This document shows, one piece after another, positions 7,901 through 55,900 of a stretch of DNA of 64,000 bases. Positions within the stretch are counted from its first letter, which is position 1, and each line of letters opens with the position of its first letter. Source of the DNA: Phoronis australis (taxonomy: Eukaryota > Animalia > Phoronida); the NCBI GenBank assembly GCA_002633005.1, contig NMRA01000045.1, positions 923,552-987,551 on the forward strand, in the 5' to 3' direction. The notes under the pieces were generated by a model that ran no database searches, was not told the DNA's origin, and saw only the letters and a program-made list of their open reading frames with translations. A program made the position numbers and the translations under genes.

Positions 7901-10900
7901 CAGCTGTATAGTCTTTACTAGCCAGACTTAGGTGTGCACCTGTTGTGGGAAAAGTGCTATTGTTGCATTGTTCTTGTAATGAGTTTGTTCTGTAATCTGC
8001 ACTTGACATTCCAAACCACACTGTGTCTCATTCAGATAGAAGGGACTGACTACCTTTAGGCAGTTGGTCATCTGACTGTGGTTCAAATTTCAGTTGTCAT
8101 ATGAATTGTTACTTTAACTTTAGTTTGTACTCTGGCGGTTTGAAAAGGAATCATTCAGCATACAGCTCTTTAGCATTGTGAAAGCATACTTTACCCAGGT
8201 GTGCAAGACGGTAGGAGTTGACAGGAACAAAACGGAATTTCTTTCGTTCATTTGAATGTCTCACTGCGCAGCTGTGGCAATTTGACTGTATGATGGTCCC
8301 AAAGAATTCATAAAAAACGTTGCATTCAAGAATTGCAGAATACTGTCCACTATCATATGGCCATGTTTAAAGGTGTATTTCATCTGCTGACGTTGCAGCT
8401 ATTTCATTGCTGTGACTGCTGGTGCATACTGGCGGGTACTTTGAATTTTGTNTAGTAGGTAGGGATGTCATATCATATCTAAAATCCAGACCAGCGCAAT
8501 ACCTGAGCACTTGGAAAAGGTGTACCTGAAATGACATAAATTCATGACATACCACATTCAGTTCATCTTTGTGTTCTTTCTAAGTCATAGTACCCTCTCT
8601 GTTGATTTATTTTGTTCTTATTCTGTTGTCACATGTAAGACAATGAACAAGATTATACTAAGATGTCAGAAATTTTGGGCACAATATGGCAGACGTAATA
8701 AATTACATTTTTTCATATTTTCCATTAAAGGAACTTGGCAGGAAAAGTAATTTTCCAAAATCAGGCTCAACATGGAGCCTAAACTTGGAACCCCCGTAGT
8801 CTTAGTTCTATGTGCTCTGCTGGTGAAGCTAAATCCCAGTCGATAAATGGTAGAGTATTTTAAGCATTGTTAACTGGTGAAATCACCAGCCTTCATTACA
8901 AGGAATGTCTGGAAGACAAGAGCGACAATAGGCCATTTGTAGTAAAATCATAAAAACTCTACGGATTTTGTTGTTTTATAATTCTGGTCAAAGCAGTTAA
9001 TGTCTAGAAGTCAATCCTATCCCATAGCAATCCCAAAACTGCATTTTCTGCCAAGAAACCAAATGTGTTTCTTTTAAGTAAGTATGACCAAAGTTAGTTA
9101 CACACAATAGCTACCATTAAACAGCGTTTTATTAATGGGCACTCATGTCTATGTTAGATGCCTTTTAAAAGGAAGAAAGTCAATTTTGACTTTTATAAAA
9201 ATTTCTCAAAATTTTCCCATCCCTTTGTTCCATCTGATTCGTGGACATTGCTGAGTGCATGTTGCATTCGCTGTTTCTGCTTGCTGTTTAGTCAATGTCA
9301 ATATCTATCTCCTGCTGTGAAAGGAAAACTAGGTTATGCCATCTGGTGTTGATTTTGTTGGGAAGCCATGGTGCCTGGCTGAATGTAATATGAAAACAAA
9401 TACACCATGCATTAGTGGGTGGTAATCTATATTGAATAATAAACTATGACAACAGTGGGGGGTCAGCCCACCAGGACAGAATCATTAATAGTTTGTTCTG
9501 CCAACAGATTTTGCTATGCTAAAAGTATGTTTTTATCCATTTTGCTGATTACTGCAGCAACAATTAAACTTCGAGCCTAGTCACACTGAGCTCAGATTGT
9601 GCAAACTGTCTTAACATCTTGATAAAATGGACAGGAGATGGGAGAAGACTGGTAACTTTGACATTTGCCCACAGTGCAGAACTTAAAGCTGGTCCCACAA
9701 AAAAATTTCTTGCTTGTTTTCAAGGCTGTTATTAGGGCTATGCTAGTGTGCCAGGGCTGTTAAGTTCTGTACAGAAACTGACACAGGCTCTGCGGTTATT
9801 GAGGCCAAAAGCGATCCTTAAACCTTTTGCCTTGTAAGAGTAAGCAAAAATTTACATCAAAACATTTAACATACATATTTTAGAACAATCCATAAGATTT
9901 TCAAAACATGCCAACAGTAAACCCAATAGTATGCCCATGAGTGTACAGTTGGAAAATTTTCCAAAAATATGTCTATAGGTTGGGCGTGGGCCTATTTTCG
10001 GAAAGTCGCGGTTGTTGTTGAATTGGACTTGAAAATTGCTACCTCTGTGTATTGCTAATGCCATGTGTCAACTCTATCAAGTGTTGCAGTCACATATTGT
10101 TACACTGAAGTGAGTGCCAATGAAGGATTTTGGTTGCACTTAATATTCTGTGGCACTGAATTCATTCTGTTCATCCTTAAATTTTCATTGGCATGCATGA
10201 TACATTTTCTGTCCCTTTTTCCAGGATTTTACTTATGGCAGGCGTAGATATAGAAGCCAAAGACACTGACGGCTGGACGCCACTACACGCCGCTGCTCAC
10301 TGGGGCGAAGAAGAGGCCTGTAAACTACTAGTAGAGAACATGTGTAATATGGAGGCTAGGAATTATAGTGTAAGTACTGGCACCTATTGGTCAATGTTGG
10401 AACCAGGAGTTGTGCTTATGGTGCCACATGGTGGAGTGGGTTTATGAAGTACTAGTGAAGAATATGCAATACAGAACCAGGAATTAAAGTGTAAGTACTG
10501 GCACCTATTGGTCAATGGGGCAGCTGAGACTATGTATGTGCTGCCACATGGTGGTCAATGGTTGAAGAGTCATTGCACATGTATAGTCACATGATGGCTG
10601 GTGATTAAACTTGGGATTGCCTGATGAAGTCAGCAGATCAGGGATTGCTTGCTAGTCATTCCTTAACAAGTGAAATCGAGTAATCCCTAAGCCTATGATA
10701 TTCTTTGTGTATATTCCATTAATTAAAAGAGGTTGCATATTCAAATTTGTTGAATACAAAGATGACTAATTTGAGTTGCTTGACTGTAGAGAATTTTAGT
10801 TGTTGGAATATCTACTAAAGGAATGAACAATGCGAACCTGTAAAAAATGCATTCAGTGTCCTGTTATTGCAACTATTGTTTTTCAGGGTCAAACCTGTTT

Positions 10901-13900
10901 TGATGTAGCTGACGATGACCTATTAAAGTTATTAGAGGATTTAAAAATCAAACAAGCATCGGTAAGTATAACTATACAACTCAAGCAGGATTTTATCAAA
11001 GCATAATTTCTATCTGGTGCAAAAATCTGGTAAGTTCACTTGAACTTGGAGGAATTATAAAATACCACGAGGGAGATGGGAAGTAACTACAGAGGATATG
11101 TGATATTCTATTTATCGCCTATTTTGAACATTAAACTCTACAAAACAAAAATTAAAATCTGTTGTCCTTTGCATCTGTCTTATGTTGTACAATGGGTCAA
11201 ATCACACCTTTTCTATATTGAACGTTGCAGCATGCCGGTCATGTTTTCTCGCCAAATTGTTATCTCCCCTTGGAAATAATTATATAGGTTATTACCCTGT
11301 TGTTATTTTCTATTAAGGTTTGTAATGGCAGATAACATGGAAATATATCTACACCCCGTTAGACTGAGATGGAAAATGACTGCTCATTATGCGTGTCATG
11401 TGATCTACTTTCAAATTTGGGAGCTTCGTCTGGAATCAAACGTTCGGTTTTGAATGTCTGCTCGAGCAAGTTCTTATGGATGCTTCGCAACTTTCGCGAT
11501 TGCACTTTTGAAAACTAGACAGTTTTTTAGTTATTTTATAAGTGATTGATTCTGTCAGTGATTTTTTTATGTAATCCTCCTTTCAGCGTCGTGAAGATAG
11601 CAAGAAAGAAATTCCCCACCTTGACATCATTGAAACGAAACATCCGATGAAACGAAGGTAAGTCTTCCTTGTTTGTTGCTTGATTAGTGTTTCTTTCATA
11701 GCAATGTATGTTGGCATAGAAACTTTGAGGCTGGCCCTTAAATCAAGAAAGATTTTACAAGCATTTGTGTAACTTATATGCTGCTATGTTTTGGCTTGCT
11801 GTTAACCTAACTTATGGCTCACTCTTTAAGGTTATCTGGGCCCTTAATAAACGACCTCAACTCTAAATCAACTATCGAAAAGAACTATGCTTTGTCAACC
11901 ATTAAAAGTATAGTATATTTTTTGAAAGGAGAAAAATCGAGGATTCTAAAAATATGCTTTACGCTTCTTACTACTATGTCTTTGTAATTGCCACGTGGCC
12001 ACGTTTTAAGTCCGATTTTACTGAAACTTTTTTTAAATGAAAACTTTATGTCACGTTTCAAAAACGCTGTTAGGATTCATGCCTTGTGTTTTTGCCAGTT
12101 CATTTGGCATTTAATTCCTAACAGCATTTTTGAGACTTAACATAAAATTTCCATTTCAAAAAAATTTAGTAAAATCGACTGGGGGGGTTATTTTGCTATG
12201 AATGTACCTTTCTTGCACATGAAAATTTGACTTAAAAAAACATGGTCACGTAACAATAATAAAGACACAGTAGTAAGAAGCATATTTTTAGAATCCTCGA
12301 TCTTTCTCCTTTCAGAAAATATATATTTTTCATGGTTGACATAGCATAGCTTTTTCGATATTTGATTTGAGGTGGTTTGTTAAGGTCTTAGATAACCTTA
12401 AATCAGATGAGACTCGATGAGCGTGGTAGGAACTGAGTGCTTGTTATTGTTGATAGTCTCGTGTAATGTTAAACTAAGGCAAATCTTAACAGCAACTTTT
12501 ATGGTAAAGAAATGGGACATTGAATAATGTGTCCACTTGTTTTTGATTTTGTTTTTTGAAGAAATTGTTTTCGGGCTGGTTTCACTCTTTACAAAGTACT
12601 TGCCAAAAGTAACCAGATAAACTCCCATCACGATGAGTCATCATTCTCAAAAACTCTGACTGTGGAATAATATTTCCACCTTGTTAACTTTTCGGTGAAT
12701 TTCCTGTCGTTCTTGGTCAGGATTGACAGGCGCAAGTCTTTTGGCTGGTGGGTGAATTCTGTCGTGATGGGGGGATTAGGATAATTATGTCTAGTTATTC
12801 TTGGTTGGTACATCAGTAGATGCAGGTTGTACATTTATGTTCAGTTTTGGAAACTTTGAATGTGTGTTGTAACTTGGTGTTACGAGCATGTTACTCTGCA
12901 TGACACAGTTTTGTAACTCCTTAGCAGTAGGTGCTTGTTTTTTAGTCAGTTCCAAATAGTTTTCCATCTTGGGGAAAGTTGCACTGTATGTTGAGTGCTT
13001 ATTTCTGGTTTTGAGTGATTTGACCCAGATACTGAAAGCTTCTTAATAATGAAGACTTGAATGCAGAAATGACTTCCCTCGGTGTTGCCGCCATATTCCA
13101 AATTTTACTGTTACCCCTGAACTTGATGAGTCCTTCACATTCTCCATTATCACCTTCCCGAGGCAGTTGTGTGTTTGAGTTGTCATGAGTGCATTGCTTG
13201 TATCTGATGTCTGTTAATATTATTTACTTCTGATTCCCCTCTCCTGGTGTTTAAAATACTTCTAGGTCTTGTCTCGTTGCCTGTAGATCCTGAATCCACA
13301 CCTTATCCATTCAAATTAAACAGTTTCCTACCCGTGGCTGTGTTTTGGGTCTTTTGCACCTTATGACATTGGTAAAAAGCCTGCACAATTGTCCGGGTAG
13401 ACATTTCTAAGTGTGAAAGATTGGACATTACTATCTCTACCATGGTTACATTGGTAGAGCTGTGTTACTTCTACCGGGAATTTCGGAAAATAGGCATGTG
13501 GACAGATATTTGGAAACGACCATTAAAAATGTCAAATTTAACAGAATGTACTCCAGGGGTTACTGTGCTAATACTGCTTCTTACAAACCAAGTCGCCTAA
13601 TATCTTGTTAAATAATAGTTACTTGAGGGAAATTGGGATCCCAAATATAGTTTCTTGTCAAAATAAACAAAATTTTATATCGAAACATATTACATACATA
13701 TTTCAGAACAATCAATTAGATTTTCAAAACAGTTGCTGAAAATACACTCGTGGGCGTACTTTTGGAAAATTTTCCGAACATGTGCCCATGGGCATGCTTT
13801 TAGGTGGACCAGTTTTCGGAAATTCTCGGTATTGTTACTCTTTCTAACGTTGGTTAAGCTGGTAATAAATTCAACTAGTATTTAATGTTAACATTTGGTT

Positions 13901-25900: not shown

Positions 25901-28900
25901 TTTGAAAATTAAGGAGGTAGAGTGTGTTATTGTTATATGTACACGCACATACACATTTATAATGCAAACGATTTGCCTGAAGTCGTGCATGGCTCTCAAC
26001 GATCATGAAAAACTAGGATTGAAGTGTTTCCTCGTGTGAAACCTTATGAAAAGTTACAACATGAATTGGAACCATGTGGCATGGTGTGACATAATGTAAA
26101 ATGGCTTGATGTTTTGTTTTTACCTGAGTTGTGGTTTATTGTTTGCATGCTTAGACACTGCAGATTGCCTCTTCAAAGTAACACCTGGAAGAAGGCTGCT
26201 GCATTTTTGCTGTCAGTTTTGTCTGTTCACCAGTTTAACCTAAAAGGTTATCCGCAAATTTTGATGATCATTTTAAGGAGAGGCTGGAAAAGTGCCAAAA
26301 TCAGTGGAATTTTCTGGATTTTTCCAGTCGCTATGGTTAGACAACATCTGTTGAAATTCAAAACAAGTGATGAGTGCTATTTGGTACACCAAAACAACAC
26401 CAGTGTACATTGTGCTAGATTCCACATCATACACCAGGAGTCATTATTTTGATTTGTGGACTTACGGATTCAGATGTGATCCCATTGTCGTGTTAGCTGC
26501 AATACTTAAAGTGAGGTCAGCTCGCTCTGGAGCATCGTAATTCTGGTCTTTGCCCTGTTGCCATGTATGACTGTGCCGTCTCGCTTGGGTAGTTTGTGTG
26601 TTAATTATTTATCACTCCGAGAATTACGTAACCGGAGCAGAGTTCAGCACTTAATCGTGTGTTGAATGCGATTTCAGTTCACTTTCGGATTTAATGCGAT
26701 TTTTGTCGAAAATCTTATTGTTATTCAGTAGCTTTAAGATGGTATCAGTTTTTTTGTACAAACTGGTGCGTTCTTACTTTTTACATTCTGTTTTTTATGA
26801 AACGTTTTTGAAGTTAACTTTAAACAGTATGTGGGATTGAAAATGGGAATTCGAATTCCAAGATGTGATCATGAACTCTAACTTGACAAAGGGTCTGTTT
26901 CTTGATCCATGATAGTTTTAAGTTAAAATTTTTGCCTTATGCTTCATTCAGTTATTTCCTAAAAAGAATTAAATATCACTTCAAGAGAGCACAAAGTTTA
27001 TAAGAATGTACCCACTATTACAAAATAATCGGATAATTTGCATATCATTTCTTAATTGTAACGTGCTAGGAATTGTATGGCCAAAACTTTATTTAGTGAT
27101 CGCAAAGTGTCAACATTTCTGACTAAAACCTTAAGTCACTTTCATAAAACAGACCCTAACTCCACCTTGGCCTCACTTAAGATCTGTTGCCAAGTAACTT
27201 GTTTGGTGGACTACATTCACTAAATGAGCCGCGTAGACTAGTTGGTGGACATGTTTTTCATTCTCTGTTCAGGTCATTTGAACCGCCCAAGAGGGACGAA
27301 GAGACAGAAACTCAGAGGAAGTTGAGAGCTCGACGCGCAAGGGAGACCAGGAGGTCAACTCAGGTCAGTGGGACGGTCAAGCATTTGATCAACTTACAGA
27401 GTATTACAGCATTTTGACTCATTTTTGAAGATACTCTTGCCTTTGTCTTCACCATAGAACGAGTCTTATCAGTCAAAAGATGATAACATTATGTAAACTT
27501 AATGTTTTTTTTTTGCTTTTTTAAGCTCCTACATAATGAAGGTAGTGTCATTCAACTGTGATGGCCATTTTGTTGGTGCACAATCAAAAATTCAAAGTTA
27601 CTTCTTGTCAAATTGAAAATGCATAACACGGGAAAACATTTTGAAATCTGGTTAAATTGAAAGTTGCTATGAATTTTAAATCAAAATAAAACAGAAAGGT
27701 TATCAATTAACATATTAATTTGACATTGGCTTCATGTGGTCATGTTGCTAGACAGTTTATAATTGTCAAATCTCGTGTTGCTGGGGAAACAAGATAACTG
27801 AGGACATTTCATACGTACATGTCTACTTGCATGATTCAATGCGCATTACAAAAAGGTTCATTGTTGGTTTTGATTCACTGCATGTCTAGAGGGTGTTACC
27901 ATTGTCTCTGCTTTTGGTAACTACAGGGTGTTACCATTGTCTCTGCTCTTGGTAACTACAGGGTGTTACCATTGTCTATGCTCTTGCCAACTACAGGGTG
28001 TTACCAAAGAAGACGTGGCCGCTGCTGAGGCCACCCTACAACTGGCCGACACTGACAAGAATGGTCGCACGTCATCGGCTCTCACTAGTAAACTAACCGA
28101 CGCCACAGACACAAAGCCAGAGGACAGCTCTAGTACATATGTTCGCAGGAGGAGAGACTATAGCACAAAAGTAGTAGGTGTTCAGTTGCAAACGCCACGT
28201 ACGCATTAAAAATGCATGGTAGTTTGAGCTACCTGGCCCTAATTAATGCAGCAAAGTTCTTTCTAGAATAAAACACATTTTGTGAAAACTTCCTTTATAG
28301 TTTACATAGTTTCCAGAGTTGTGCTACCTGTCTTCACAGTAGGCACTTTTTAGACCATGAACTGTTTTTTGAATGAAAGCGTTGTTAAAATCGTATAGTT
28401 TCCTGATGGAGGTTGTTGTTTTTACCAGGTCTTTGGACATGGTGTGGGGATGTTATTTCTTTGAAGTATTAATCTTGTTTCTTGTATGAAAACAGATTTT
28501 TTGCTACTCTTCAACTTTTTTGGAGTGATCTTGGCTTTCCAATGTAAATTTACTTTTTTGATATTTAAAATGACCAAGTAATAATGCTCCTGAAAGTCAT
28601 TTGTTATAATCACGCTTTCTTGAGTTGCAATGTCATCGTGAGAAAGACTGCGCTGGACAATCTCGTTGCCAGAGGTCAGCAGGTCTGCGTTCTGTAGACC
28701 ACATGACATTACCTTACACTTGAGGTGAAAATCTTCGCTGAAACACTGAATTAAATCCCACAGTGCAACACTCCAACCTCACCGACCAATCACTTTAGTG
28801 ACCGCCACTTTGCTAGGATAAGGTAGTTAGACCCTGAGCCTACTGGCCAATCACTTGCCTTTCATTCGTGTGATTTTGAGAGGTCGTGCTAGATCTTGCT

Positions 28901-31900
28901 TTTCTCTCATTAAACTCAGTCTACAGAATGCTCTGGTGGTATTTCGCTGGTTTTATTGTAATTTTGATTTTGCGTACTTTATTCAGGACGACACTGCTAA
29001 CCTTTCGGCAAGCACAAACAGTTTTCGTAGATCCAGAGACTATGCAGCCACTACAACAACAGACTTGTCTTCTTCAACAGGTAAAGCAATTTGTGTCCTG
29101 AATTCCCCTTAAAGGTTTTATAGGGCATTACAGACAGGTGTGCATACTTAACCAAATATCGGCAAAACTGTAGATCTTGACTCGGTAAAAGTATTTATTT
29201 TAAAGAGAACACTTGTACAATTTGATTTTTTGAATTTTTACCAATCTAATATAAAGTGGGTCACGTGACCTGTCTTTAGTAAAATTTAGCAAAAAAAGAA
29301 AGGTTGCAAAACAGTATCAATGACTTATCAAATTTTATTTGATGTAAATCATAAATGTTCAAGGTGGGATCTCAAAAACCCTGGAACATTGTTTCATTTT
29401 TGTTTCATACAATTTAACATTTTTTCATGGATATCATATAAGTTCTGTTTTTGATAGCTCTTCGTGCAAAGTAGAACATTTTGAATTCAATTCCTAACAT
29501 TGTAATGTAGAACAGTGCATAAAGCATAGTATCTGAAAGTTTTGTCTAAGACATGATGTTCTGAGCTTGGCCAGATTTGGACGTTTTTCTCTGGTCCTAC
29601 ATAATCTAAACCTCTCGTATACAGTCACTGTTAGTTACAATGGTGGAATGTTAACTTTGTTCTGAGCCATTTCACATTTCTCGAAGAACAACCAGTATAG
29701 CTAGTGTTGAGACGACCAATATTTCCTATATTTGTCCCAGAAGTCACTGTTGAGAAGCCATATATTGGTACCAGAACTTATTGATACTGAAAAGTTTTTA
29801 AAAATGCTAAAGGTCTATAGAACTGATGTCTCTTGTGTGATATGCAAAAATCCAGAAAACCTTAAAAATGGAAACATTTAACGACTAATTGTAGAATTTC
29901 GTGTTTTCCCTGTCTATGTAATGTCGCACAAGGCAAGATCTATGCGTTATTTAACAACTAACTTAATACCACAAAATGAAATTGTTGTGCGGAACCTGGT
30001 TTTGTTTTAAGGAAGAAACATTTATTCAAAAGTAATGATGTAGTGCTAAGTTCCCATCTATGTATCTAGTGCAGCAGCATATCTTCAACTCAAGCATGGC
30101 CCATCTGCATTTCAACCGGTTTCCTTCCCATCAACCCCCCAGCCTCAAATTGCGCAGATCCCTTTTGTCTTTAACACATCCACCCACCCCGTTACGTACT
30201 CCGTAGATATTCACAGTTGCCTCATCCATGATAAGCACTAAAAAAGCTGGTTTGCCTGTTGTTGTATCCGTAACAGCTGCTCTAGATGTTAACCTGACTA
30301 GTTGTATGACTCCGCTGTGTTGCAAGAGTGACGATTGACTTTTGATATTGCCATTGGTGGTTGGTTTACTGCATGTGATTTAACATTATGCATTTGCAAT
30401 CAGCTGATTATGTAGCTACTACTAGTTAGATAGAAAGTCCACTAGTCGCCTGATGTACGAAATACTAATGCCTTTTCATGTGTCAGGTCCTATGCTACAC
30501 CTGTAAGTAGTCACCATCTGTGAGACCATATGTAAGTGATTGAATTTTCAGTAGCCTGTGCTAATGACGAAGAGCTTCTCTTTTTATCGTCTGAATAAAC
30601 TGAGAATGTAAATCCGCTCACTAGCATGGGATTTTTCATGGGATGAGAGTCTCACTAGACCTGACAACATCAATTTTGATGTAACTCCAGTGTTTCATTT
30701 GCACCACCTTCACTTCTGTGTCAGTCATTGAAACAACGTAGAGAAGATTGGTTAGGTTAAAGGTGTAGAAATCTGTGATTTGCATCGTCATGTTGAATAT
30801 TACCTGTTGACCACACACACACACCCACAACCNCACGCACACACACACACCTTTGATCTCTACTTTCCAAAATGCCATGTAGCCGTTGGTTTAATTGCCT
30901 GTGGATTGTACGGAATGAAGTTAGTGTAAGAAAACCAAATTTTCTGTGTGGAGAATTGATTAATTCACTTGAGGGAGTGAAACTTGATCATCTATCCAAA
31001 AGTTGGTCTATCTGGAAAATTAAGCAGCAGAATTTATGGCAGTTCAACTGAAGGACTGCTTTCAGGGACCCTGAAATCCTCAAATTCATGCTAAGGTTAA
31101 CCATGTCTCAGATGTTTGAACACGTCCTCCTAGGACGTACTGCAATTCTGAAAAACATAGACGTGTCAACTCACCTTATTTTGGTATTGTGGGTGTTATT
31201 TCTCACCTGACAAAGGCAAAATTAAAGCATAGTGCTGCCATACTTCTCAGGGGGGTTAAATTCCATATTTCGCATTTTGGTCTTTGCCTACTACACATCT
31301 ACAAAAATGTAGGGATCCCTTATTAGTTTCACCACACAGACGCCTAAACAAAGGCAGTACTGGCAAAAATGCGAAATTATAATCGTTAATTATGTTGTCA
31401 TTATGAAATTTTATGCTATCCGCTATTACTTAACACTAAAATTACAATTTAAAATTCAAAAGCAAAATGGACTCTAAAATTAAATACTGATCTGTTCTTT
31501 GAAAAAAGTTATATTCACTGGTTTCATAAGTTAATAACTACTACATTGCGGCTTTGTGTTGAGCTCCCTATTTAGTTCATTCAGTTTTTGCTTAACACTG
31601 CTGGTCCATGTCCCCTACGTCTGCTTTGCATGGCTTCATTAATCCAGTGGCTACCACGCTAACACTCTCTCATTCTAGGTTATATCCCACGCAGTCAGCG
31701 CTTGTCTGCTCAACTTACAGATGCAGCAACGACTAGCAGCGCCACCACCACCGCTACCACCACTACCACCTCGTTGCCAACGAGGACGTCCTACAGGCAG
31801 CGCCAGCTAGCGGCTGAAGAGGACAAAACAGATGCTGCCAAAGTCGAGGATAAGAAAGTTGAAGAAAAGAAAGAAGGTGAGTGAATTGCTTCAGGGAAAA

Positions 31901-34900
31901 TCTGGAGCCCAGATATAATGCTTTTTTGCGCTTTCTGGATTTAATCCCAATTATTTTTACATTATATTTTCCATAATAAACGTTTTGAAAAAGTTGTTGG
32001 AGTACAATGTCCTTGTGTTGCTATAGCAACTTCTGACAGTTGGAAGAGATATGTGAGTTGACAGACTTGTAGCCATTGTGCTATTGGGCTATGCCAGTTT
32101 CACCTTTTGGCTATGTGGGAACAGTTATATCTATGTCATCAACAGAAGTGATAATTGTTTTATTTTACATAGGAACTCTGAAACTTCTACCATGGACTAG
32201 TTTTGCTCTTTGAATTCTTTCTGGAAGTATGTAAGGTTACAGTTGATGTTGCCTAGGATGGCCTCCAGTTCAGTTATATTGTAGCATTTTCTGAAAGTGA
32301 AAGGACAGTGTATCTTCTTTCAGACATTGTTTTTGTCAGTCATTTTTCCTGCTTTCTTTCTTTCCGTACAGCCACTCTATTTTCAGATGTGCCATTTTGA
32401 CTACGGTAATGTGTTCCATTGCAGCTAATTTGTGCTTAAAGTCTCATGCAGTGCTCATTAGGTCAGAACTAAAATTACAAACTTCAACTGAAATAAATCA
32501 AGTTGGCGCCTGTTAATGTCCTGGTTGAAAATGTCGATGAACACTGTTCAATCCATGCAGCTGTTATCATTTGAAAATTTTGAAAATAGATGAGTGTGTT
32601 GAAGGAGCAGATCAAATGGTTCCAGCCCAAAAGAGGAACCACTACATTGGCTTCCAGAGATATCGCTGCTGCATGTGACTTTTACACTTTAAGTGCAACG
32701 CAGTGTCAAGATGCCAACATGCATTTCTACTTGTCACTGAATATTATTGATTAGAAATAGTCATTCATCTCGCTACGTCTTTGATCTGTGTTTCATTACT
32801 AAGTTTACCATTTGTGATTTGGTGCATTACTGTCGGATTTATATTTATTCAAGATATTAGAGTTGGAAGTGGACAAGTGCTTTAAGCAGTGGTAATGACG
32901 GCGTGCGCTGTTTGCGTGCTTGCTAAACAACGCGTGCCGCCGTGGTTCTCTTGCAGATGCCAACAACGGCCTTGACCCTCACGAGCGTCGCTTAGCGTCC
33001 ATACGAGAGCGGCGGCGAGAACGGCGCTCGTCGGCGCTAGCGCAGAACATCAATGTAAGTGGCCGTACGCACGACACTGCATCCTGTAGGCACAGACTCT
33101 CATGGGTAGTCATTGTCATTCTCTTCTCTCCTCAGACTTGTTTTCTTTTGCACGTTTATTGTTCACTAACCCGCCTATTTGCTTTTGAACGTAGACGACC
33201 TGTTCAGCGGTCGCAGCAGCTCCGGCATCCGCGCCCGACGCCGCAGAATAGAGCGCCGCCCTACTGGCAAGGTCCCTAGCGACATCAGCGAGGATGTAAG
33301 TTGCGCGTGTGAGCACAGGAAATCGCGACACTCGGTCTTTCTATATGATGGCATTGTGTTTCTAAATTCCTCAAGTAATGCGCCATTTTGCTTTGAGGAG
33401 AAATCAACTAATATTTGGTTATTTTAATCGTCCAAAGCATAATAGGCTGTAGTAACTGTATAATGTAGCTCTACTTCTAGAGTCTTGAATAGTTAAGTCT
33501 AGCTGTACTGAAACCAATTGTCTAGCAGGTTACACTGTCAGTAATCTTGAATCGCATGAAGTTCCCGTTAAGGGCTAAAACATCCAGTTCTTGTTGCTGA
33601 ATGATAAAACTTCTGCATGACTGTCAGTGATAGAAAAACTAATTTGTTTACTTTAGAATGCAAGTACTAAGCTCGTAGACAAGAGTGTGCATCATGTGTT
33701 TGTTCCTCTTATTCGTCAGTGAAAGCTCTTACTTGCAGTTTCATTATTGTTAACTTTTCAGTCAATCCCAGTGCAATAAGTCTGAAGTTTTGCAATATGC
33801 GGACAGCACGGTATTTTGGTTCAGTTTTAGAGGTGAAGACAATCACCGTCTCAAGGGTACCACAGCAACTTGGCATTAGAGGGAGTGACATACAATTGAA
33901 TGGTGTCATTTTTAGCTAAAAATGTTTTGCTGGGTTTACTTTTTTCTAAATAACACTGCTGGAGAAAATTACTCCAGAGCAGTTTATCGTTTGGTAGTAA
34001 AGATCTCTAGTGGCATGTCCCCCCTCCCCCTCCCCCTATTCAGAACTGGTCACGTACACCTAGCCGAGCATGGCTCACCTTACTAACTGCGTCTCCTCTA
34101 ATCAGGGCTTGGAATTTTCCGCGGAAACGCGGATTTCCGCTTTTTTCAAATGTGCTTTCCGCTTTTTTTATAATATTTCCGCGTAAAAAAATCGGATTTG
34201 ATATAAAATTTCAACGGCAAATTCCTTTCTTACTGCGGCGTTGCAGACGACGTTCACCTCGAAAAGCGGAAGTTGCTCTTTATATTTCGGAGGAACGTAA
34301 ATTGTCAACATTGCCGGGGCATCTGGGACAGCGTGGTGGGATTTTCAATGGCGTCTCGTGTTATTGTTAAGCGCGGCGACAAATACTACCGCTCTGCAGC
34401 CAAAAATGTGTGGGTTGGGAGTGGACGGGCGAGCTAAAAGGACGCAGACGCATGCTACTGATGGTGGTAACGTTTGTTTTTTAGTCCTCCCGATTTTTGT
34501 TGGGGAAAGGTTCACATTGACCATTTCAAGGCTGGTTATCGGGCATGATAAAGTTTCAAAGTTTCCGCGTTTTTTGTCATTGGTCATTCCAAGCCCTGTC
34601 TAATACAGTTTGTAGTTTGGTGTTGTGTTGGCTTTCACCTGCTTACACTTCTCCCACTGTAGTGACATCACGTAGGTCAGAGGTCAGAGGTCAGGATTGT
34701 ATGTTGTTGCAAACACCCACTGATGGTCACATTATGGAGGAGATGTGTGCTAAATGTCATGGGTGTTTTCACTCAATGTTTTGTGGTGGTTCACCTTGAA
34801 TTAATATGTTTTGTGATGATACACTTTGAATTAATTTAGACTTCATCACTTCATCATAATAAATACTTGGTACGTACAGAGTATCCCCTTCTCCAAAGCT

Positions 34901-37900
34901 TCATAGTAGTCAACATATCTATCTATACAATGCATGTTGATATTTTTGACTCACCTATCAGTGTTAACTTGAGAACTTCAATTGTTAGAAAAAATTCAAA
35001 TGTCGTGTAATTTTGGTAAATTGCAATTTTTCTTGGTTTACCATCATTTTCATTTTAATCAATGTAGAGAAAACCCTACTAAATTAAACGATATGTCTCT
35101 ATCTTAAAGCAGTACATATCAAAGCACACAGTCATATTTTCAACTTCTTGGACATCAGGCATGAACTTCTTTCTTCTGTACATCCTTGTGAATGAAGAGT
35201 TGAGTGCTTAATGTTGTTGTGTTGAATGTTGTGTAATGGCATGCTGGTGTGGCTTCGGTCATTCCTCTTCAATCCGTGTGATGCTGTTCTGCAGTTCATT
35301 GACAGCATGCTCCCTACCTCATCTGTCTGTGTCATTCTCCGCAGGCAAAAGAGGACAGCACTGAGGAAACGAAGAAGGAACCAGCAAAAACAGAGCCAGA
35401 AGACACCTCGGTAAGTGGCGTTGAGTTTTTCTGATTGTTGCGAGAATGAGCAATTTGGAATTTGTCGGGTTGCAATGGCGAATCAATGATTCAGCCTGCA
35501 TACAAGCGAGCATTCACATAGGATCATGGAACCCTTATCCAACGACTGCTTGTGTAATGTAGACAGTTTGCTGTTGTTACACTATCCAGGTAAATAAATA
35601 GGAAGCCAAGGCTTAGGATTTGCTCTTCTTAGTGAATATTGGGCCGTTAATATCTTGTAACACCATCAGTTAGTATCCTGAGAATATTGCAATGGTTTCT
35701 TTTGACCGTTGGTTTCCTGTGTGGTTTGGACCTTCTAGAAGCAGGCAGGCACACAGCAGTTGACATGCCCAAGATTCCAGTGATCCTTATGTACTGTCAA
35801 TATCTGTAGTTTGATTCTTATGTACTGTCATTATCTGTAGTTTGATTCTTATGTACTGTCATTATCTGTAGTTTGAAGGCTGGCTCAATGGTTGGCCCCT
35901 CTTTTGTTGGATATTCTCTTTGGTCAACCATTGGTAGGTGTTACTGTAGCAACTCTGGTGTTGCCATGGTGATGGGAGGCATCAACTTACTGGGGATTGT
36001 TCTGTAAACACTTGGCTTGTGGAACAGAAATAACATTTTTTATTACTTGCTAGCTTAATCCCATGAATTAACATTTCTGTATCACCGACCAATCATTTCA
36101 GTAGCGGTCATTTTGCTAGTGTTCACAAGTAAGGTCTTGTGTTTATTCGTCAAACGCTCACCTTTCACTCATTGATTTCTTGTGGTATTGTGTGATCTCG
36201 CTTTTCTTGCTAGAAGCTGAGAGCAAATCTCTAGCGGCAGCTCAGAGTCCTGGTGATTTCTGAAAATGTCATGCTCAGTGCTACCACTGTTAAAGTTAGA
36301 TTATTAGATAAAAACTTGTTGAAGAAGACTGCTTTCTTGTAGTGTGAAGTGTCACTAACCAAATCTGTGGTATTGGCAACTTACATTCCTTTCAATAGAA
36401 AGGTAATATTGGAGATGTTGTCAACCCCATGCTCAGAAATACTGCTTGCCATCAGTTCTCAGTGCAGTTTCGGGGAAAACGGTTTTCTTGGATCTGATAA
36501 TATTTCAATAAATGATTGCCATATTGAAAAGCAACTGCCCACTGATTTCCCCCGTCCTCAAATTAGCTGAGCTTATCGTCCCTAAGCATCTCCTTAATTA
36601 GAAACAGTTGTTTGGCCAAGATTGGTGGGGTAGCGTGGCAATTGAACCAATCAAGAGGAGAATTCAGCCTCATCGCTTGCAAAATGTCAAGAGTTGACCG
36701 TTGAGAAATGCAGCTTTGAGATTGATGATTTGACTTGTAAAACTCCTGTCTAGTGTTCATTTAGTACACTTGCATGGTCATAGTGAACAGGGGAACTTTG
36801 TAGAATTGAAAGTGTTACGCTACTTTGTTAAAGAGTCAATTAACTTGCGCCTTTTTTCTAAAACCAGCTGATGCCATAGACCACTTAGTGTTATAAAATT
36901 GGTCTGATTACTGGAGGAATTTTTTCTGAAGTTTGGATTGTATGTAGATCTATGTCTGTCAGCAGCTATCTAGAATATTCCATCCATTTTTTTGCTGCAA
37001 CTGATCATTCTCAAGTTATCCAAGATTTTGTGATGTCATCTGTTTACTTGATTGACTCCCCGCTGCACTTTTGTATGTCTATCATATGCATATTACGGGT
37101 AACANTGATTTGACTTGTAAAATTCCTGTCTAGTGTTCATTTAGTACACTTGCATGGTCATAGTGAACAGGGGAACTTTGTAGAATTGAAAGTGTTACGC
37201 TACTTTGTTAAAGAGTCAATTAACTTGCGCCTTTTTTCTAAAACCAGCTGATACCATAGACCACTTAGTGTTATAAAATTGGTCTGATTACTGGAGGAAT
37301 TTTTTCTGAAGTTTGGATTGTATGTAGATCTATGTCTGTCAGCAGCTATCTAGAATATTCCATCCATTTTTTTGCTGCAACTGATCATTCTCAAGTTATC
37401 CAAGATTTTGTGATGTCATCTGTTTACTTGATTGACTCCCCGCTGCACTTTTGTATGTCTATCATATGCATATTACGGGTAACATTTTTGAAGTTAGCGC
37501 ATAGTATTTACGGTGTGAAAAACATGAGGCTTATTCTATTTGAAAGAAATTGGATGCGAGATGAGCATTTTTTCTGAGTAATGGTTTATGGAGCCCTAGC
37601 TCCAGTACTTTGAGGGAATTTTGAAGTTAATTTAAGGATAGATCTCAACATGTGCTATCTGGGGTTTGTCATCCGTTTCTCGCTGCGACCTTCGAGATCT
37701 TTTGATTTGTTGACCGCTGTTTTATTGTCTAATTCCTCATTACACTTATGTTGGTTTATCCTTTATTGTGAAATAATATGTTACTCAATCACTTCCATCA
37801 CTCACCGTCGTTATTGTCATTGTTTTCCATTCATTTTCGCCAAGCGTTATGACAAGATTGTGTTTTTCTAATAATTTTTGTCGTTGTCATTCTTCACCAT

Positions 37901-46900: not shown

Positions 46901-49900
46901 TTCTCAGAATGTGTTGGAGAGTGCAGTCTGAGACTAACCGGTCTCAGAAATATTGAAGTGGAATTTCTGACCTAAGCCCAAAGCACTTTAATGTGATGTC
47001 AAAAGTCAGTTTCATTTAGAATACTTTTTCATCATTTCATTAGTTATTCTTTATCAACCTGTAGTCTGGGACTATGTGTACTAATGCAGTTAATCTCAGT
47101 TGCTATCTGTATGAATAATGTTGATTTCTCATTATGGAACTCCGTTGCAAGTCTTTCTTATTAAACCTAGATGGCATAGTTGGATTTTGTATTATTGATT
47201 GAATATGTTTGTCGTATATCACGACCTCTAGCCGTAGCCCATCGGAATAGAGATACGGCAAATGTTCTTCAGTTCAGCACACGAGACGGTGATCATGTGC
47301 TGTTTAATTTTGTCAAATTTCTTCAAAATAATGAAAAAAATTGATTTCATCATCAGCAGGATCAATAGCAGTGATCACAAAACAACAATTTTGTTACGAG
47401 AGTTTGAGCATTTTAACAAATGTATCCATTAAATGTTATAAAAATGGAAAATTCCTATTTGACAAATATTTTTGTGCAAAGTTCAGGAGAGATTATCATA
47501 ACCTTTCCCCACTTAAGGTTTTTTTTTCAACTCTGACTTTGAGAGGAGTTGTGATGGCTGTTCTAGTCTAGGAGTTGCGCTTTCCCGCTGATCGGAGCTC
47601 TCTGTAGCACGGGAGTTTTGGTGCTGGTGGGAAAGAGGCATACGATTGCTGCGAATGGAGATATTGGTTGAAACTGCTTTTTCAACAGATCTTGATCACT
47701 GCTGTATGTCAGGCAGTCACTTGCAGGGATCCTGCATTTTAAGAACCAGTTCAATGCCTGTTTTTCAGGGGTGAATACTGGTTCTCAAAATGCAGGAAGC
47801 CTGTAAATGACTATTACTGCATCTCATGAACCACTTGGCATAATTTGTTTGAATTTACAAACATTGATTTTTTTGCTCTGCCTGAAGGGATTGATTATTC
47901 TGTACTGGCTTTTATGTTGTTAATGATAAGTGTATCCAACTTGAAATGCGAGTCGTTCTATAATTGAAATGCAAAGTAAGTAATCTGTGCCTGAGAACTA
48001 GTCTGCTTGTTATGTATCCCAGTCGCTTTAGGGGGGAGGTGTTTTATTCCTCCATGACATATGTACTAAGACTGGTGTTGCAAGTTGCCAGCAGTGTGGT
48101 GTAAAGGTTCTTCAATGCCACTGTAGGTGAGAGGGTAGTCAGTGCATATGTCCGTCATTGACATGCTGGCAACATTACCCAGTGGGTAATTTGTTTGCTG
48201 TGGGAAAATATCCACTGATAATTCATTCTAGAAAGCACTGGTTTTTCAATTCCTTGATTGGGAGAGGCCAATGAGTGCCGGTGTAATTAGGTAGAAAGTA
48301 GCACAATGAATATTCAATATATCATAGATGATGATAGCGTCACATAGATTTAAGAGTCGTTTTAGTACGGTAGGGAAAGCTAGTGCCTTCCTCCTCTATG
48401 AATGAAATGGTCCTACTGCATTAAGTGAGCGTGAATGGTTTTGCCTCGAAAGACTTTGTTTTGTAATTACAAATTGCCTTGGCAGTTTGAGTTATCGCCG
48501 AGGCATTTAAATCAAAAAAGTAATTGTTCTAGTGGTGTGCATTAAATCAAACCCAAGTTACAGTACTTACAAGACAAAAGCAATAGAGACAAAATTTTTC
48601 TCACCTTAAAGGATAATTCTGTTAATAGTAAAAATGACTGGCAATAAATATTAATGTGGCAAAATTTTGATTACAGAGTGGATTAGCTACCTCATTAACT
48701 TAACTGTTAATCTCCCTTCATTATCTCGGTCATGAAAACTGTGAGGATGAATTCAGTTTCTGCCCAGTCGTCGTGATAAGGAACTCCGGGTTTTTTTGTC
48801 TCATTACTTTTGGCATGTATTGTATGGTTGCTTGCAAGTTAAATTTCTTAAAACTCGGGGTTGGTGGGTGTTCAGTTCTATGTGGGCACTAATCCAAACA
48901 AAAACTGTAGCTTATTCTCGTTTCAGATATTTTTGTATTTTCAGTGGTTTCTTAACTTACGTTTCTGTTTTTCTTTGCAGTCTTCGTCGCGTTACAGTGA
49001 TCGCTATGGTGCTGGTGAAAGATCATCGTATAGCGACCGCTACTCATCCACCCGTTCTTCGACACGTGACGCTGACCGGCCGAGCAGTTCCTACAGGTAT
49101 TCCCGCGCCTCTACAACGGCTGCTGCCACAGAGTCGGAGTCGCAAGATTTCAAAAAGGTACGCAGGCTGACAGAAGTGTCTTTATGTTTTACTAGTGCAG
49201 TTTCATAACATAGAAAAAGCTTTTGGACTTATGTAGTTGTTTTTAGCTGAAGAACAAATGGAACAATCAGCACTTGGGTATTCGTTATTATCGATATCGT
49301 GTTATTAACTTCAAATAATTTGTTGTTACTTACGGAAATCACCTGTCAGTGAGTGCTGATAACTCAAACAGTCCCTCACAGTGAAGTTAAGCAGGTCATG
49401 TTAACATTTGGCGGAACTATGAAGTTGACCATCATCACCAAGTGCTCACCTGTTTGTGTTCCCTTAGTGACTAAATCTGTTATTCGCCTTTGCTTGTCTC
49501 CTTATTTCCGCTGGTGACTTGTCCAGTAAAACCTCACCAATTTAGGACAAAATGTGTCGGGAGAAGTGAAATTTTATTTTTTTTTTGTTTTTCCATGAAA
49601 GTAAGAAACTCCGAATTTATGCATTTCCTTGTTCAAGTTTTGTACCATAGCTGTCATCAGACAAAATTCTGAAAATTTTTAGACATTCTCAACAATGTTC
49701 GGAAACTTTGAAAAATGAATAAGGTCGGTTTTGACAATTATTTTGGCAGAGTTTGGTGTTATTTAACCGCTGATGAGGTCAAATTTGATATGAGTGTTAG
49801 CAAAGTATTGGTTGTTTTCTTTTATTGATGTGACCTAACGCTAGAATTGTGTGAATATTCAAGTAAACACACAAACTCTAGTCTGTCTCTGTTTCCAGTT

Positions 49901-52900
49901 ATACGATGAACAAAAAGCCGAGAATGAACGTATAAAGAAAGAGTTAACCAAAGTCCAAAAAGAATACGCCGACTGTAAAACAGAACTAGAAAAAACCAAG
50001 TCAAGCCAAAGTCGATTAGGCAATTCAATGGATCAAAGAGTGAGTGTCATGCCTGCAAATCACCGGGTGGGGGGGTGTCTTTTGCATCTTCATAGACCAC
50101 AGCTTTGCAACTCAATTTCATGTGGAATTCACAGAAGCGGTGCCACTTCCTGGTTAGTGGGCAGACGACTTACCGTGACTAACACCAGGTGGCGCTTATG
50201 AATACTGACTTCACGGCCAATGGTGTTGGTGGTGTCTTGTGCGTACGATCACAGGTTTTGTTCACTGAGGATATACAGAGTTGTCAGTCCACATAGTATA
50301 GTTAACGGTTTAGTGAAAGTGACTTAAAGACTTAAGACAGAAATTTGGTGTTGGGAATCAATAATCAAAACTCACTTTAGCTTATCAACAAAGTATTTGA
50401 GAATATACCCATAACTGCTACTTACTGGGAAAAGTTGTACAAATTCTTTGCAGTCAGTGGTACACTAATAATTACATGACAACGGTTATTTGGTAATTGT
50501 GAAGTGAGAGCATTAGACCAAATTTCAGTCTTGGTCACTGTTCATGAAGCAGACCCCAGCATACATTAGCGACAGTACGAGGTGTTGTATTTGCTTTGTA
50601 TTATCATCTGCTTAATACTCTTGATATCTTCATTTTAGTCATGAAATACAACTACATTGTTGTATCCATTAGACTAAGAGCCACTTAAAATTGAGAATCT
50701 GGGAGTTGTAGTCATGCCGAGTACAACTGAATCAGTGGTGTTGTTGAACTAGAGCTAGGCGTTGAGGCAATGTGAACATTAGTATGAACGGATAAAGTGT
50801 TGTTAGTCAATATGTTTGTAAGGCGGTGCTGTTGTGGCATTTTTGTTGGCAAGATTCTCTGATGGCGGGACAATGTTTTCTGTATGTCTGTGCCATGTCT
50901 AAATGCCATTAGTTTTGCCAGGGTTGTCTAACCCTTCCAAGATTAGACTATTTTGTGTCAATCACAGGTGATATCACAGTTGAGTTCATTTTGATGAAAG
51001 AAATAGCTTGCTTTCATGGCAAATAAAATTTGAAATCGGTTAATCAGGGTATTTCTAGATGTCCATGTTTGACCTAAAGTAAAAAGTAAATTCCCGTTGA
51101 TTTAATGGCAGAAAGTTTGCTTAATATTGAGCTTATTTAATGACAGGTAAATGAGAAAGTAGTGAGTGTTGTTAATCTAATACATTTGTTACTTCAGGAG
51201 AAGAGGACATTAGAACGGAAGATATCTGAAATGGAGGAAGAGCTCAAGGTACGCAATACTGTCAATCTAATGTCACACTTTTTTCATCGCAACCAAACGT
51301 TTTATGACTGATGGTGTTTCGGCTGTTGTTAGGAACATCTTAACGGTCAAGAAAGTTTCGTCTGAAATCTTGTTTTTGTCTGTGAAATTGGTGTTACTTT
51401 GTGTCTCCTCGGCCGCATTACACAGCGACCCTTGGCACTGTTTACCCATAATGCCACAATATCCATCAAACCAGTTTGAAATCTTGTTTTTGTGCCATTG
51501 TAGCTTCTCATATAATGTGTTGGTGTCCTGCATTTTACAAGTTTCACTTTATTGCATTAACTATATACGACATTCCACTGTCAGGTTTTACTGCTGAGCT
51601 GTAGGCCACAACTCTGATGGCAGAAAGTTTGATAAACAATTCGTGAATGCATGTTTTCCAACGTGATGCCCAGAATCACTCCGACATTTTCAAAGTGAGA
51701 GCGCTTTCTCACCTCTGGACAAAAGAGAGTCCAATGGGTAACGGTCGTATTATGGCTTACTATGACTGGGTTTGACTAGCCTACGTTACTCTTGGTAAAC
51801 ACATTGAAACAATTCCTTTGCTTTTTCTCAAAGTTACTCTTGCCAATGGATTAAATGTTCGATAAAATCTCACTCCTGTCTCCAGTATAGTGGGAATGTT
51901 TTATTTTGTTGTGAAATGAATCAGAAAGTACCATAGTGTATAATGTAATATAAAAGCCAGTAAGCAAAAGTTAAAAATTTGAGGTCAGAATTCACTTCAG
52001 AGTTTTAACATGTTGTTTTTGACATAGCTTAACATTTGTCCCCACTTTTGAAAAGGCGTGAGCATCATCAATACATATATGTATGTTTGAAAAACATTTC
52101 TAGATGTATTGCTTTAAGGGCGTGAATTGGACTGTTAGCTGATCTGTTGCTTGTCTTGTGCAGGATATATAGTTCTTAAGACTTAGTGGCACTGCCATTA
52201 ATACAGATTCTGTTACTGGCAAATTTTCTTAAAGACCGACACAGGGCCAGTTGAGTCGTGTCAGAAGCATAGATCTCAAAACTGCAATAAATCAAAATTT
52301 AGGTGTCAAATCGAGGCCTGCAAGCAATTGGTGAACTCCACTGCATGCCACGGTTAACAGAAGTTCCCGGGTTTGAGTCCCATCGGGGCAGAATTTTTTC
52401 AGACTTATGTTCATTAGGTCACGTGATGTGGCCAACAGGTGGCATGCAGACCATACATGAAATTTTTGTGATCTATATTTCTACGCCGATTCAAGATTTA
52501 CATATTTATGTACACTCAGAAGTTTATGGGCTGAATGCCTTCTAGATTTCTGTGTTCAACTAGTGGTCCCGATCACTCAGTGGCCTTGATTGTTCTCACG
52601 GTTAGCAGGTCTCGGGTTCAAGTCCCGGTTGGGGGAGAAATCTTTTCAGGTCACGTGATGTGGCCAACAGGTGGCGTGCAGACCAGACAAAAAGGTTCGT
52701 GATGGACCTGTTTTATTGGCAGTGGAACTGATATATTACATATGCTTGCTACATGAGCAGATTTTTAATGGTCATGATGGCCCTAAGGATTATCAATGTC
52801 AGTTGACAGTTTCCATGATATAAATTTTTACTAAAGCTTATTGAAGTAATTGTCTAAATGCTGCACGTGCCTCTGTGATATTGCAAGTAGCTAGGAGCTC

Positions 52901-55900
52901 TCCCCGCAATGTACGTGTGAAGATGCTGTCTGAATCTTGGTCAAATTTATTTTGAAAGTTGTTATGCATGCCGTCGCAACTGCACAGCCCTTCATCCCAA
53001 CTGTGTTGATTTTCATGAAGACTTTGGCTTATGTTGCATCTTGCTGGAGCTTCCCTTGTGTTCTTTCAGCCAATGGAATCGTTAAAACTGGACAACGCTA
53101 AGTTAGTAGAAGAGAACCACACCCTTTTATGCGAAATAGACAAATTGTCAAAACCATAGGTAAAACTGAAATCGAAATCCAGGTACTCACCAAGCAAGCA
53201 TAGGGCATGCTCTGACCTCTGACCTACTGGTTCATTGGTGGTTTATCATTTGGCATTGGCGTATGCAGTAGGGAATACCTGCAGACCTACAGTCAAAGGG
53301 ACATTCAGTGCTTACGGAGTGCTGTACATTTATAGCTTGATGGCATTGCAGTCACTATAAACTAAAGCAGCTTGCCTTCAGATGTGTCAATATTTGAGAA
53401 AAGCGACCAATTAGGAAATAAGCTCTTAGTAGTCTTTTTATGTTGTTTTTCAATGAAAAAAAAATAAAAGCAATACAGAGAATATCAACTTAATGTTAAA
53501 CTCTTGTTTGATTTCCATCTCTTTAGCTCCTGGGTTGTCATAGTTGGATACAAATTGGGCTTTGCATGGCTGATAATATGCAGGCAGGCGGCTTTTGGCA
53601 AATAATTGAGCATGTACACACACTAGATGTGTCGTTGTGGAACTGTGCCATGTTGTTTCCATCACCCGGTTTTCTTGTTTGCCAAAACCTGAAGGTAGAC
53701 AGTTTTCCTTTCTCGCACTATGCAGGCATTCTCATCATGTTTGCTTCTCGTGCGTACAGTCCTTTTTTCACCAGCTGTAGTTTAGTCATGAGCTGCAGTT
53801 CTTTTCACTCTCTTTCACTTTCTGTCAGACAGGAAGCATGAGCAAGCATGCTTGTTGCAGGGTATCAAACCTGTCTCTGACTACATACTTCAACTCAGTG
53901 GTGTTTATGGGAAACCGTAGTGCGTGATAAGAAATAGAAATCGTAAGGATGGAATGCCCCAGCTTTCCATAAGGGATATGGATGATCTCCCTTGAACCAC
54001 TCGTTGTGCAATTTCCGAGTTTATTCATTATTCAAGAGCTTACTGAACATCCTTTTTGTGCTCCCACATATACATGTATGTGAGTGTACACTGCCGTCAT
54101 CTTTCTCTGGATATCCGAGCATCGGGCGTCCACTGCCGTTATCTCCTAAACCCCTCGCACAATCTTAATGAGATTTTGGCACATGAGTTCCTATGAAGTT
54201 TATTATTACAGATGGCAACATGTTTCAGACTAATCCGACTACTGCTATGCCCTCTAGTGGCAGATAGGTTTCTATTAAGAAGATGACGATGCCATTGTTT
54301 TTTCGGAGGGCTTCAACATATTTATGTTGTCTTGTGGCCATTTTTGTTATTTTTGAGTCCCATTTTCTGGCATCCGGCTCTTTATACACCAAAGCGGTCA
54401 AAAGATCACCTTGAAAATTTGCAGATATGTTCCTGATGAGAAGACATATGGCTGACGTTGATTTTCGGATGGACTTGACTTCTACGTCACCCCCTAGTGG
54501 TGATATTGTGCATCCGCACCCATATCTTCTTAACTCTTTGAAGGAGCTTTGTGAAATTTGGCAGATGCGTTCTTATGGAGCTGGCGACAGGTGATGACGA
54601 GTTTCGGACTGATCCATATACCGCTGTGCCTCCTAGTGGCCAGTTTTGTTTTGTGTTTGCCTGTGTATCTTCGGAATTCATCTATGGATTTTCATGAAAT
54701 TTGGCAAATAGGTTTCTACTAATGAGATGAAGATTTCTTTCCATTTTCACATGGATTCAACTTATTTGCACTACCTAATGGCAAATCGCTCAAAGGATTA
54801 TGAAAATTGGCAGACATGTTCCATGGTTTACAATTTTTGGACAGGTTCAAATGCTATGACGCCCCCTAATGTCAATTTTTTGCATTTTGTGGCTGTATCT
54901 CCTTAATCCTTTGTAGGATCTTTTTCAAATTTTGGCAAGTGTTTTGATTTGAATGTGACCATGGCTTTTCAATGACAACCACTGTGCCCCTTAGCAGAAT
55001 TTTAGTTTTTACTTATGCCTTTGTATCTTCAGAGTTCCTTCATGAAATTTGGTGATAGGTTTAAGTTTTGGAGACGATAGCACCATTCCATTTTGGACAG
55101 ATTTGACATGTTCTGCACCATCTAGTGGCCATTTTTATTATTTTTAGTCTTGATTTTGTCGTCTGTCTCTGTATTTGCGGAAGTGCTTTGAGGATCATCA
55201 TGAAAATTGACAATTTTTTTGCCCTGACTGATAATTTTCAGACTAGTCCAACTACTTAGGTGTTCGCAACTGGCATTTCTTGCATCTGTGACTGTTTCCC
55301 CTGAGCTCCGTGCAAGATCTTTGTTAAATTTGGCAAATGTATTCCCATTAACTTGACAACAAATGAACAGATACAATTACGGCTCTGCCTCCTAGTGGAA
55401 TGTGATTTTACTTTAGTTGCCACTGTGTCTTTTAACTTTCTCGATGGATTTTTATAAAATATTGCAAATAATTTTCTATTAGGGAGACAACGATGCCTTC
55501 CAATTTTCAGACAGGTTTGTTATATCCTGCGCCTTATTTTTATGATAATTAACACAGTCCCCCTAGAAACTTGTTGTTTGCGGTGCAGTCGTGGGCACAT
55601 TTCAGTGCTTTGCATTGCGCTCGTTACTTCAGGTAGTTGGTATGTTTTATAAAGTTTCACCCGTGGCATCTCATTCATTTGTCTCAGTCTGTGATTGGTT
55701 ACTTGTTTAATGGTCTTAATGTTGCCCTTGTTCCAATGCTCTGTCTTAGCCTCCTGATTTTCGTGTGTAGTTGTGTTTCTTAAAGGAGGTGATTACGTTC
55801 CAGCACCTGTTCAGTGTCCAGTATTTCCCACTGTTACCTGTTGTCACTGCCAGTTGGTAGGGTGTATTCAGCCTCATCTTGATTCCGTGTGCATTTTCTC

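Follow-up and report, generated by a model that had tools for sequence, protein, structure and literature searches.

Two alternative exons for the Thr853-type segment of a Phoronis australis MYPT gene

It was found that transcripts of the MYPT/PPP1R12 gene of Phoronis australis carry either of two neighboring exons, A or B, at the place of the Thr853-type regulatory site (site 2). By comparison with other MYPT proteins, exon B is identified as the family's ancestral Thr853-type exon, and exon A probably arose from that exon by tandem duplication and then diverged within the lineage. The reading put forward here, for which I hold about even confidence, is that splicing is predicted to decide whether the phosphatase subunit has a canonical ROCK-type Thr853 site (exon B) or lacks one (exon A), exon A being a probable lineage-diverged duplicate.

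The window, that is, the whole 64-kb stretch of DNA analyzed, contains most of the landmarks of the family (Table 1). The gene was assigned to MYPT/PPP1R12 by Pfam and tblastn on the basis of its ankyrin repeats (Pfam Ank, E 1.1e-09), its Thr696-type exon, and its PRKG1-interacting C-terminus with the coiled coil and leucine zipper (PF15898, E 3.5e-12), and PPP1R12 proteins are its top homologues. The exon of the Thr696-type inhibitory site (site 1) aligns with those of five relatives at 77-83% identity. The 5′ end of the gene lies outside the window, with the canonical first exons upstream, where the PP1-binding RVxF that precedes the ankyrins in this family would be expected. A tree of 22 MYPT sequences (478 columns) places the gene among the non-molluscan lophotrochozoans. 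Its neighbors there are annelids, Lingula, and the nemertean Tubulanus, and no single phylum is more than weakly supported.

Table 1. Positions in the window of the exon pair, its flanking exons, and the landmarks of the host gene
Feature	Position	Strand	Basis
Ankyrin-repeat exons of the MYPT gene	3782..10997	+	Pfam, tblastn
Exon with the Thr696-type site 1 (RRSTQ), single copy, adjacent Ser retained	27273..27363	+	tblastn, alignment
Upstream flanking exon U, acceptors 31679 and 31721, phase-1 donor 31876	31679..31876	+	Loose ends before 31677 and 31717, joints from 31876
Exon A, 98 nt, phase 1-0, major form in X2 and X3	32957..33054	+	Joints 31876>32957, 33054>35345
RRSSA motif of exon A, second Ser in the Thr853 register, 7 codons from the exon end	33022..33036	+	Translation; register against relatives
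A-long, in-frame 51-nt extension of A via a second donor	33055..33105	+	Joint 33105>35345, loose end
Candidate branch point CTAAC of exon B (inferred)	33166..33170	+	Consensus scan; distance about 115 nt to the A donor and 64 nt to the A-long donor
Exon B, 101 nt, phase 1-0, assigned as the ancestral Thr853-type exon	33195..33295	+	Joints; profile 28.4 bits, 0/2000 shuffles
RRPTG motif of exon B, Thr codon 33263-33265	33254..33268	+	Translation; motif also in P0119, P0170, P0173, P0298
Downstream flanking exon D, phase-0 acceptor	35345..35410	+	Joints; 3′ end from splice-site scan
Coiled-coil and leucine-zipper exons (PRKG1_interact)	49896..55994	+	Pfam PF15898, tblastn

Several other features of the window were noticed, the first three of them on the plus strand. 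A 388-codon open frame lies at 774-1937, in the intron before the window's first ankyrin exon. It starts with MGC, a myristoylation/palmitoylation-like beginning, and holds an ILK...KKRVSF motif of the PP1-binding type. Its last residues are HQ, at a GT donor of phase 0 that keeps the frame of the exon at 3782; family members have LHQ at this place. Neither Pfam nor the compared proteins gave a match to this frame, and its best atlas score was 0.77 (a lead only). It could be an alternative first exon, making a membrane-anchored MYPT, or a nested gene. Further candidate cassette exons lie in the central region at 18948-23891 (for example at 18948, 19758, 21654, 22760, and 23794), some with possible alternative donors. 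Two paralogous candidates for the leucine-zipper last exon were seen at 53073-53159 and 55911-55994, the first of which is diverged and has an extra Pro at its end; they may serve as alternative last exons, much like the LZ switch by which vertebrates control PKG binding. Beyond the stop codon, a GC-rich stretch (about 50%) at 58850-59953 has overlapping open frames on both strands.

Either/or splicing of the two exons

The architecture that the earlier note had described was confirmed in the sequence: two exons of 98 and 101 nt, 140 nt apart and both of phase 1-0, lie in the interval that runs from donor 31876 to acceptor 35345. Each is bounded by AG and GTAAGT, and both U+A+D and U+B+D are open frames. 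Inclusion of both exons shifts the frame into a TAG at 33249-33251 inside exon B, and skipping of both shifts it into a TGA at 35362-35364, the two frameshifts that had been claimed. When the window was filtered for exons of phase 1-0 with a basic run and R(R/K)x(S/T), A and B were the sole passes on the plus strand, and none passed on the minus strand.

The RNA data comprised a contig set (X1, taken as RNA by guess) and raw RNA runs X2, X3, and X4, which come from another study and carry the same species label; the analysis covered about 18-19% of the reads in each of the three runs. A junction was listed from 3 reads at 2 starts, so that an unlisted form has at most 2 reads per run. The joint from U to A was found in 8 reads of X2 and 18 of X3, and that from A to D in 9 and 14 as well as in an X1 contig. 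For exon B, the upstream joint (31876>33195) had 5 reads in X2 and 3 in X3, the downstream joint (33295>35345) had 3 and 6, and both were also present in X1, where one contig spans U, B, and D and another spans A and D; thus three of the four exon-pair joints are represented in the contigs. Seven weaker joints were masked by an intronic repeat, and therefore the same runs were re-aligned on the repeat-free segment 31400-33950. There, the joints to A and to B were the only ones listed from the donor at 31876, and neither an A-to-B joint (33054>33195) nor a loose end at 31876 was found at the threshold of 3 reads per run in the 18-19% of the runs. The loose ends behind 33054, 33105, and 33295 all continue into exon D. 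Thus, each exon is joined to U and to D in reads, with no A+B or skip junction at this threshold, and the proposal that exactly one of the two is used per transcript stands.

It was also revealed that there are three splice forms rather than the two of the earlier note, since the A-long joint (4 reads in X2, 1 in X3) adds 17 codons in frame. Both acceptors of exon U, which are 42 nt apart and in frame, are used as well (15 + 11 reads in X2, 12 + 5 in X3). Exon A takes about three quarters of the junction reads (21/29 in X2 and 33/42 in X3), and the A:B ratio showed no difference between these two libraries, whose tissues are not given (Fisher p 0.58). X4 has almost no depth on exons A and B and is therefore uninformative. 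Two observations concern the intron after exon B. Sense-strand depth without joints lies at 33636-33893 (6-12 in X2, 2-3 in X3), with one fixed difference at 33737, and may be unspliced RNA or reads from another locus. A 496-nt MITE-like element at 34103-34598, whose 13-nt terminal inverted repeats are perfect and whose target duplication measures 6 nt, is very abundant in RNA reads from other copies.

How is the exclusivity kept? It would be held mainly by the reading frame: the A+B and skip products have premature stops and would likely be cleared by nonsense-mediated decay. I infer that frame and decay are the simplest account. Spliceosome assembly has a steric limit of about 50-60 nt from donor to branch point, and steric exclusion is unlikely for the main A donor, whose distance to the candidate branch point of B exceeds this limit. 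U2/U12 incompatibility was rejected because all donors are of the U2-like GT type. Nor does the extra AG at 33135 offer a way to join A and B in frame. Inverted-repeat and duplex scans around the cassette revealed no convincing docking site. One of the eight duplex comparisons stood out (the upstream intron near 32657 against the A acceptor, 3/200 shuffles), which is not significant after eight tests and counts as a lead only, and the folding energy of the cassette is within 1 SD of 20 shuffles.

The site-2 exon in the family and the origin of exon A

I surveyed the site-2 segment in a set of proteins numbered to P0429, among which 349 of 500-1700 amino acids have the site-1 motif and 310 a recognizable site 2. 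A gapped profile was built on 135 distinct site-2 segments, consisting of RRSTG (111), RRPTG (8), RRGTG (6), RRITG (3), RRISG (3), and four singletons; the acceptor is Thr in 132 of them. The search pattern of this profile survey itself required Gly after the acceptor. In two surveys made without that requirement, Gly followed the acceptor in every site-2 match. In the 39 proteins of the profile survey without a recognized site 2, a basic-rich non-Gly site was not found.

Exon B matches this profile at a level reached by no shuffled sequence (Table 1), and its best protein match is that of Tubulanus. RRPTG is carried by the annelids Capitella, Lamellibrachia, and Owenia, by Tubulanus, by one further protein, and by three lungfish/reedfish proteins. 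It is the ordinary single-exon state in the three annelids and Tubulanus, and since it is thus common to animals with a single exon, the Pro of exon B did not originate with the switch. For Tubulanus, Capitella, Owenia, and Lingula, this comparison covered proteins, and their genes may have an unannotated exon A. A protein search with exon B alone had no match among 34 candidates, which is a weak test, and no solved structure matches exon B. The assignment of the pair to the Thr853-type site in the earlier note holds on the family profile, the exon filter, and the register against relatives.

Is the pair found elsewhere? A scan for the site-1 exon gave 73 metagenome loci. Seven genomic ones reach a canonical site-2 exon (L003, L004, L007, L010, L044, L067, and L071), four are transcript-like, four pass the filter with a degenerate exon (plus two by tblastn), and the remaining loci end too early or show no site 2. 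In all seven, the site-2 exon is of phase 1-0 and 95-122 nt long, and its acceptor residue lies 7-9 codons ahead of the exon end. Both members of the pair fit this architecture, A being 98 nt long with its acceptor 7 codons before the end and B 101 nt long with 10 codons. The earlier note had pointed to other invertebrate Mbs/MYPT loci as a place to look for the pair, and it was present in none of these seven, each of which has one site-2 exon over the stretch from site 1 as far as the locus extends (downstream cover 313-509 nt in two of them). The degenerate exons belong to an annelid-like MYPT paralogue (L038, L045, L050, L055, L057, and L065), whose site-2 exon keeps the basic run without a phospho-acceptor and is conserved across loci. 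This degenerate exon was considered as a conserved exon A and was rejected, because it is the only site-2 exon of L065, a locus that extends from site 1 through the leucine zipper, and thus belongs to a separate paralogous gene.

Exon A resembles the family less closely. It scored 12.0 bits against the gapped profile (10/2000 shuffles, p about 0.005), and 170/3000 shuffles equaled it against an ungapped profile (p about 0.06). The direct alignment of A with B is at chance level (shuffle p 0.10-0.67). Thus, the paralogy that the earlier note had read from the look of the two peptides is not borne out by their alignment, but it is supported by the exon architecture and the family profile. Exon A has Ser-Ala where the family has a nearly invariant Thr-Gly, together with a shorter basic run; by this comparison, it is the derived exon, from which Thr-Gly has been lost. 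An A-like protein was not found among 411 proteins, of which those of 300-1700 amino acids were scored (best local score 49 for A vs 82 for B). A tandem duplication is the likely origin because exon A has the same phases, size, and register as B and has moderate support from the family profile. Alternatively, exon A may be an independently exonized sequence that converged on a basic RRxS motif. The chance-level similarity of the pair and the moderate profile support for A would fit such an origin, and phase 1-0 is imposed by the flanking exons whatever the origin. Nevertheless, I consider it very improbable, in view of the size and register of exon A, its p of about 0.005 against the family profile, and the fact that no exon other than A and B passed the filter when both strands (128 kb) were scanned.

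Readings of the two phosphosites

The Ser directly before a Thr acceptor is absent from both exons, B having Pro-Thr and A having Ser-Ser with Ala at +1. RRxS is a PKA-type consensus. From these motifs, the Thr of exon B would be phosphorylated like its counterparts in other MYPTs and would lack a neighboring Ser that could block this, while exon A would be a poorer ROCK-type site with a plain PKA-type consensus. Myosin binding would be tuned only modestly, because site 1 with its Ser-Thr is common to all forms. As reported in the available text of the sources cited, ROCK acts on Thr853 of MYPT1, PKG phosphorylation of Ser852 prevents the ROCK phosphorylation of Thr853 (PMC5321854, PMC5441869, PMC7333668), and phosphorylation of Thr853 reduces the association with myosin (PMC5441869). 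The earlier note saw in exon B the loss of the adjacent Ser as part of a kinase switch. The residues are as it described, Pro-Thr in B and Ser-Ser in A, but Pro is the default in single-exon relatives, and RRPT occurs in the PP1-inhibitory site of DARPP-32 (RRRRPT), which is reported to be phosphorylated via PKA (PMC4972821). Thus, exon B need not be a ROCK-only site, and a Pro before Thr is not exclusive of cyclic-nucleotide kinases.

Besides the chance-level similarity of A to B, the weak ungapped profile match of A, and the lack of an A-like exon in the seven loci or of an A-like protein in the set scored, two points count against the reading of subunits with and without a canonical ROCK-type site. 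The Ser-Ser pair of exon A matches the Ser852-Thr853 register and, on this alignment, could act like the vertebrate dual site; and T853A is described as having negligible effects in enzyme and knock-in mouse studies and little effect in smooth muscle, so that Thr853 appears dispensable there (PMC5364378, in the text available). The register of exon A, the lack of an adjacent Ser in B, and the reported block of Thr853 by PKG on Ser852 (PMC5321854, PMC5441869) would also suit another arrangement, in which both exons are ROCK sites and splicing sets whether cyclic-nucleotide kinases can block them. I regard it as unlikely, since several single-exon annelids and a single-exon nemertean have Pro as their default residue, DARPP-32 is phosphorylated through PKA at an RRPT of its own (PMC4972821), exon A has lost the nearly invariant Thr-Gly, and the A:B ratio does not differ between the libraries.

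A stronger version, namely a tissue-regulated switch that would swap a ROCK-type site 2 for a PKA/PKG-type site, or for a dual site blockable by cyclic-nucleotide kinases, so that exon choice does the job of the vertebrate paralogues, is rather doubtful. At the other extreme, exon A may be a tolerated, nearly neutral duplicate, of which only the basic patch and the frame are kept in a disordered region, and the isoforms would behave alike. Such neutrality agrees with the absence of exon A from the other species examined, the drifting donor that gives A-long, the lack of site 2 in some annotated isoforms elsewhere, and the absence of a clear phenotype of T853A in the text available (PMC5364378). 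It is quite unlikely, however, for exon A is the major form in both libraries, and RRxS was kept in register despite no detectable nucleotide similarity between A and B, which suggests long-term selection.

Comparison with known systems and meaning

Tandem-duplicated mutually exclusive exons are generally adjacent, of the same phase and of similar length, and their double inclusion breaks the frame. The Phoronis pair shares these properties, but sequence similarity between its two exons, if they are copies, has fallen to chance level, and the scans gave no firm docking-site structure. Vertebrate MYPT1 (PPP1R12A) belongs to the same family, has the same basic site-2 segment, and makes isoforms by splicing; the splicing described in the available text of the source affects the central insert (CI) and the leucine zipper (LZ) and not the phosphosite exon (PMC5321854), whereas the Phoronis gene exchanges two site-2 exons. 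Site 2 also differs between PPP1R12B and PPP1R12C and within the annelid-like paralogous pair, where one copy has no acceptor (the L065 group). That variation results from whole-gene duplication, while in the Phoronis gene it lies within one gene and is chosen by splicing. DARPP-32 and exon B both have a basic run followed by Pro-Thr in a PP1 regulator. DARPP-32 is, however, an unrelated protein with a motif resemblance only, and its +1 residue is Pro instead of the Gly of exon B (PMC4972821, in the text available).

Vertebrate paralogues have S, G, P, or I before the site-2 Thr, as in RRGTG (P0309), RRPTG (P0337, P0340, and P0370), and RRIT/RRIS (lizard 12C), and amphioxus has annotated isoforms with and without site 2 (P0381, P0299). 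Site 2 thus seems evolutionarily labile by three routes, namely gene duplication, skipping, and exon duplication, while site 1 is nearly fixed. At site 1, RRPTQ was observed in a chiton, a scorpion, and further proteins (P0046, P0054, P0280, P0331, P0367, and P0398), meaning that the Ser-to-Pro change also occurs at the Thr696-type site.

A report of this pair, or of alternative or mutually exclusive MYPT site-2 exons, was not found in the literature covered, which left out most subscription papers. The class of event is common and its target, the MYPT site-2 exon, is unusual. To my knowledge, the source organism is not an established experimental system. The weight of the finding is limited, since mutually exclusive exons are common and only one species has so far shown the pair. 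Opinions on what Thr853 does are divided: it is the standard read-out of ROCK activity, and yet T853A is reported to have little effect (PMC5364378, in the text available). Two expressed versions of the site-2 segment in one gene, one canonical and one non-canonical, offer a natural comparison. If the tissue-regulated switch were true, it would be the first case found of splicing that exchanges a regulatory phosphosite of MYPT, and the gene would provide a natural two-allele test of the purpose of Thr853.
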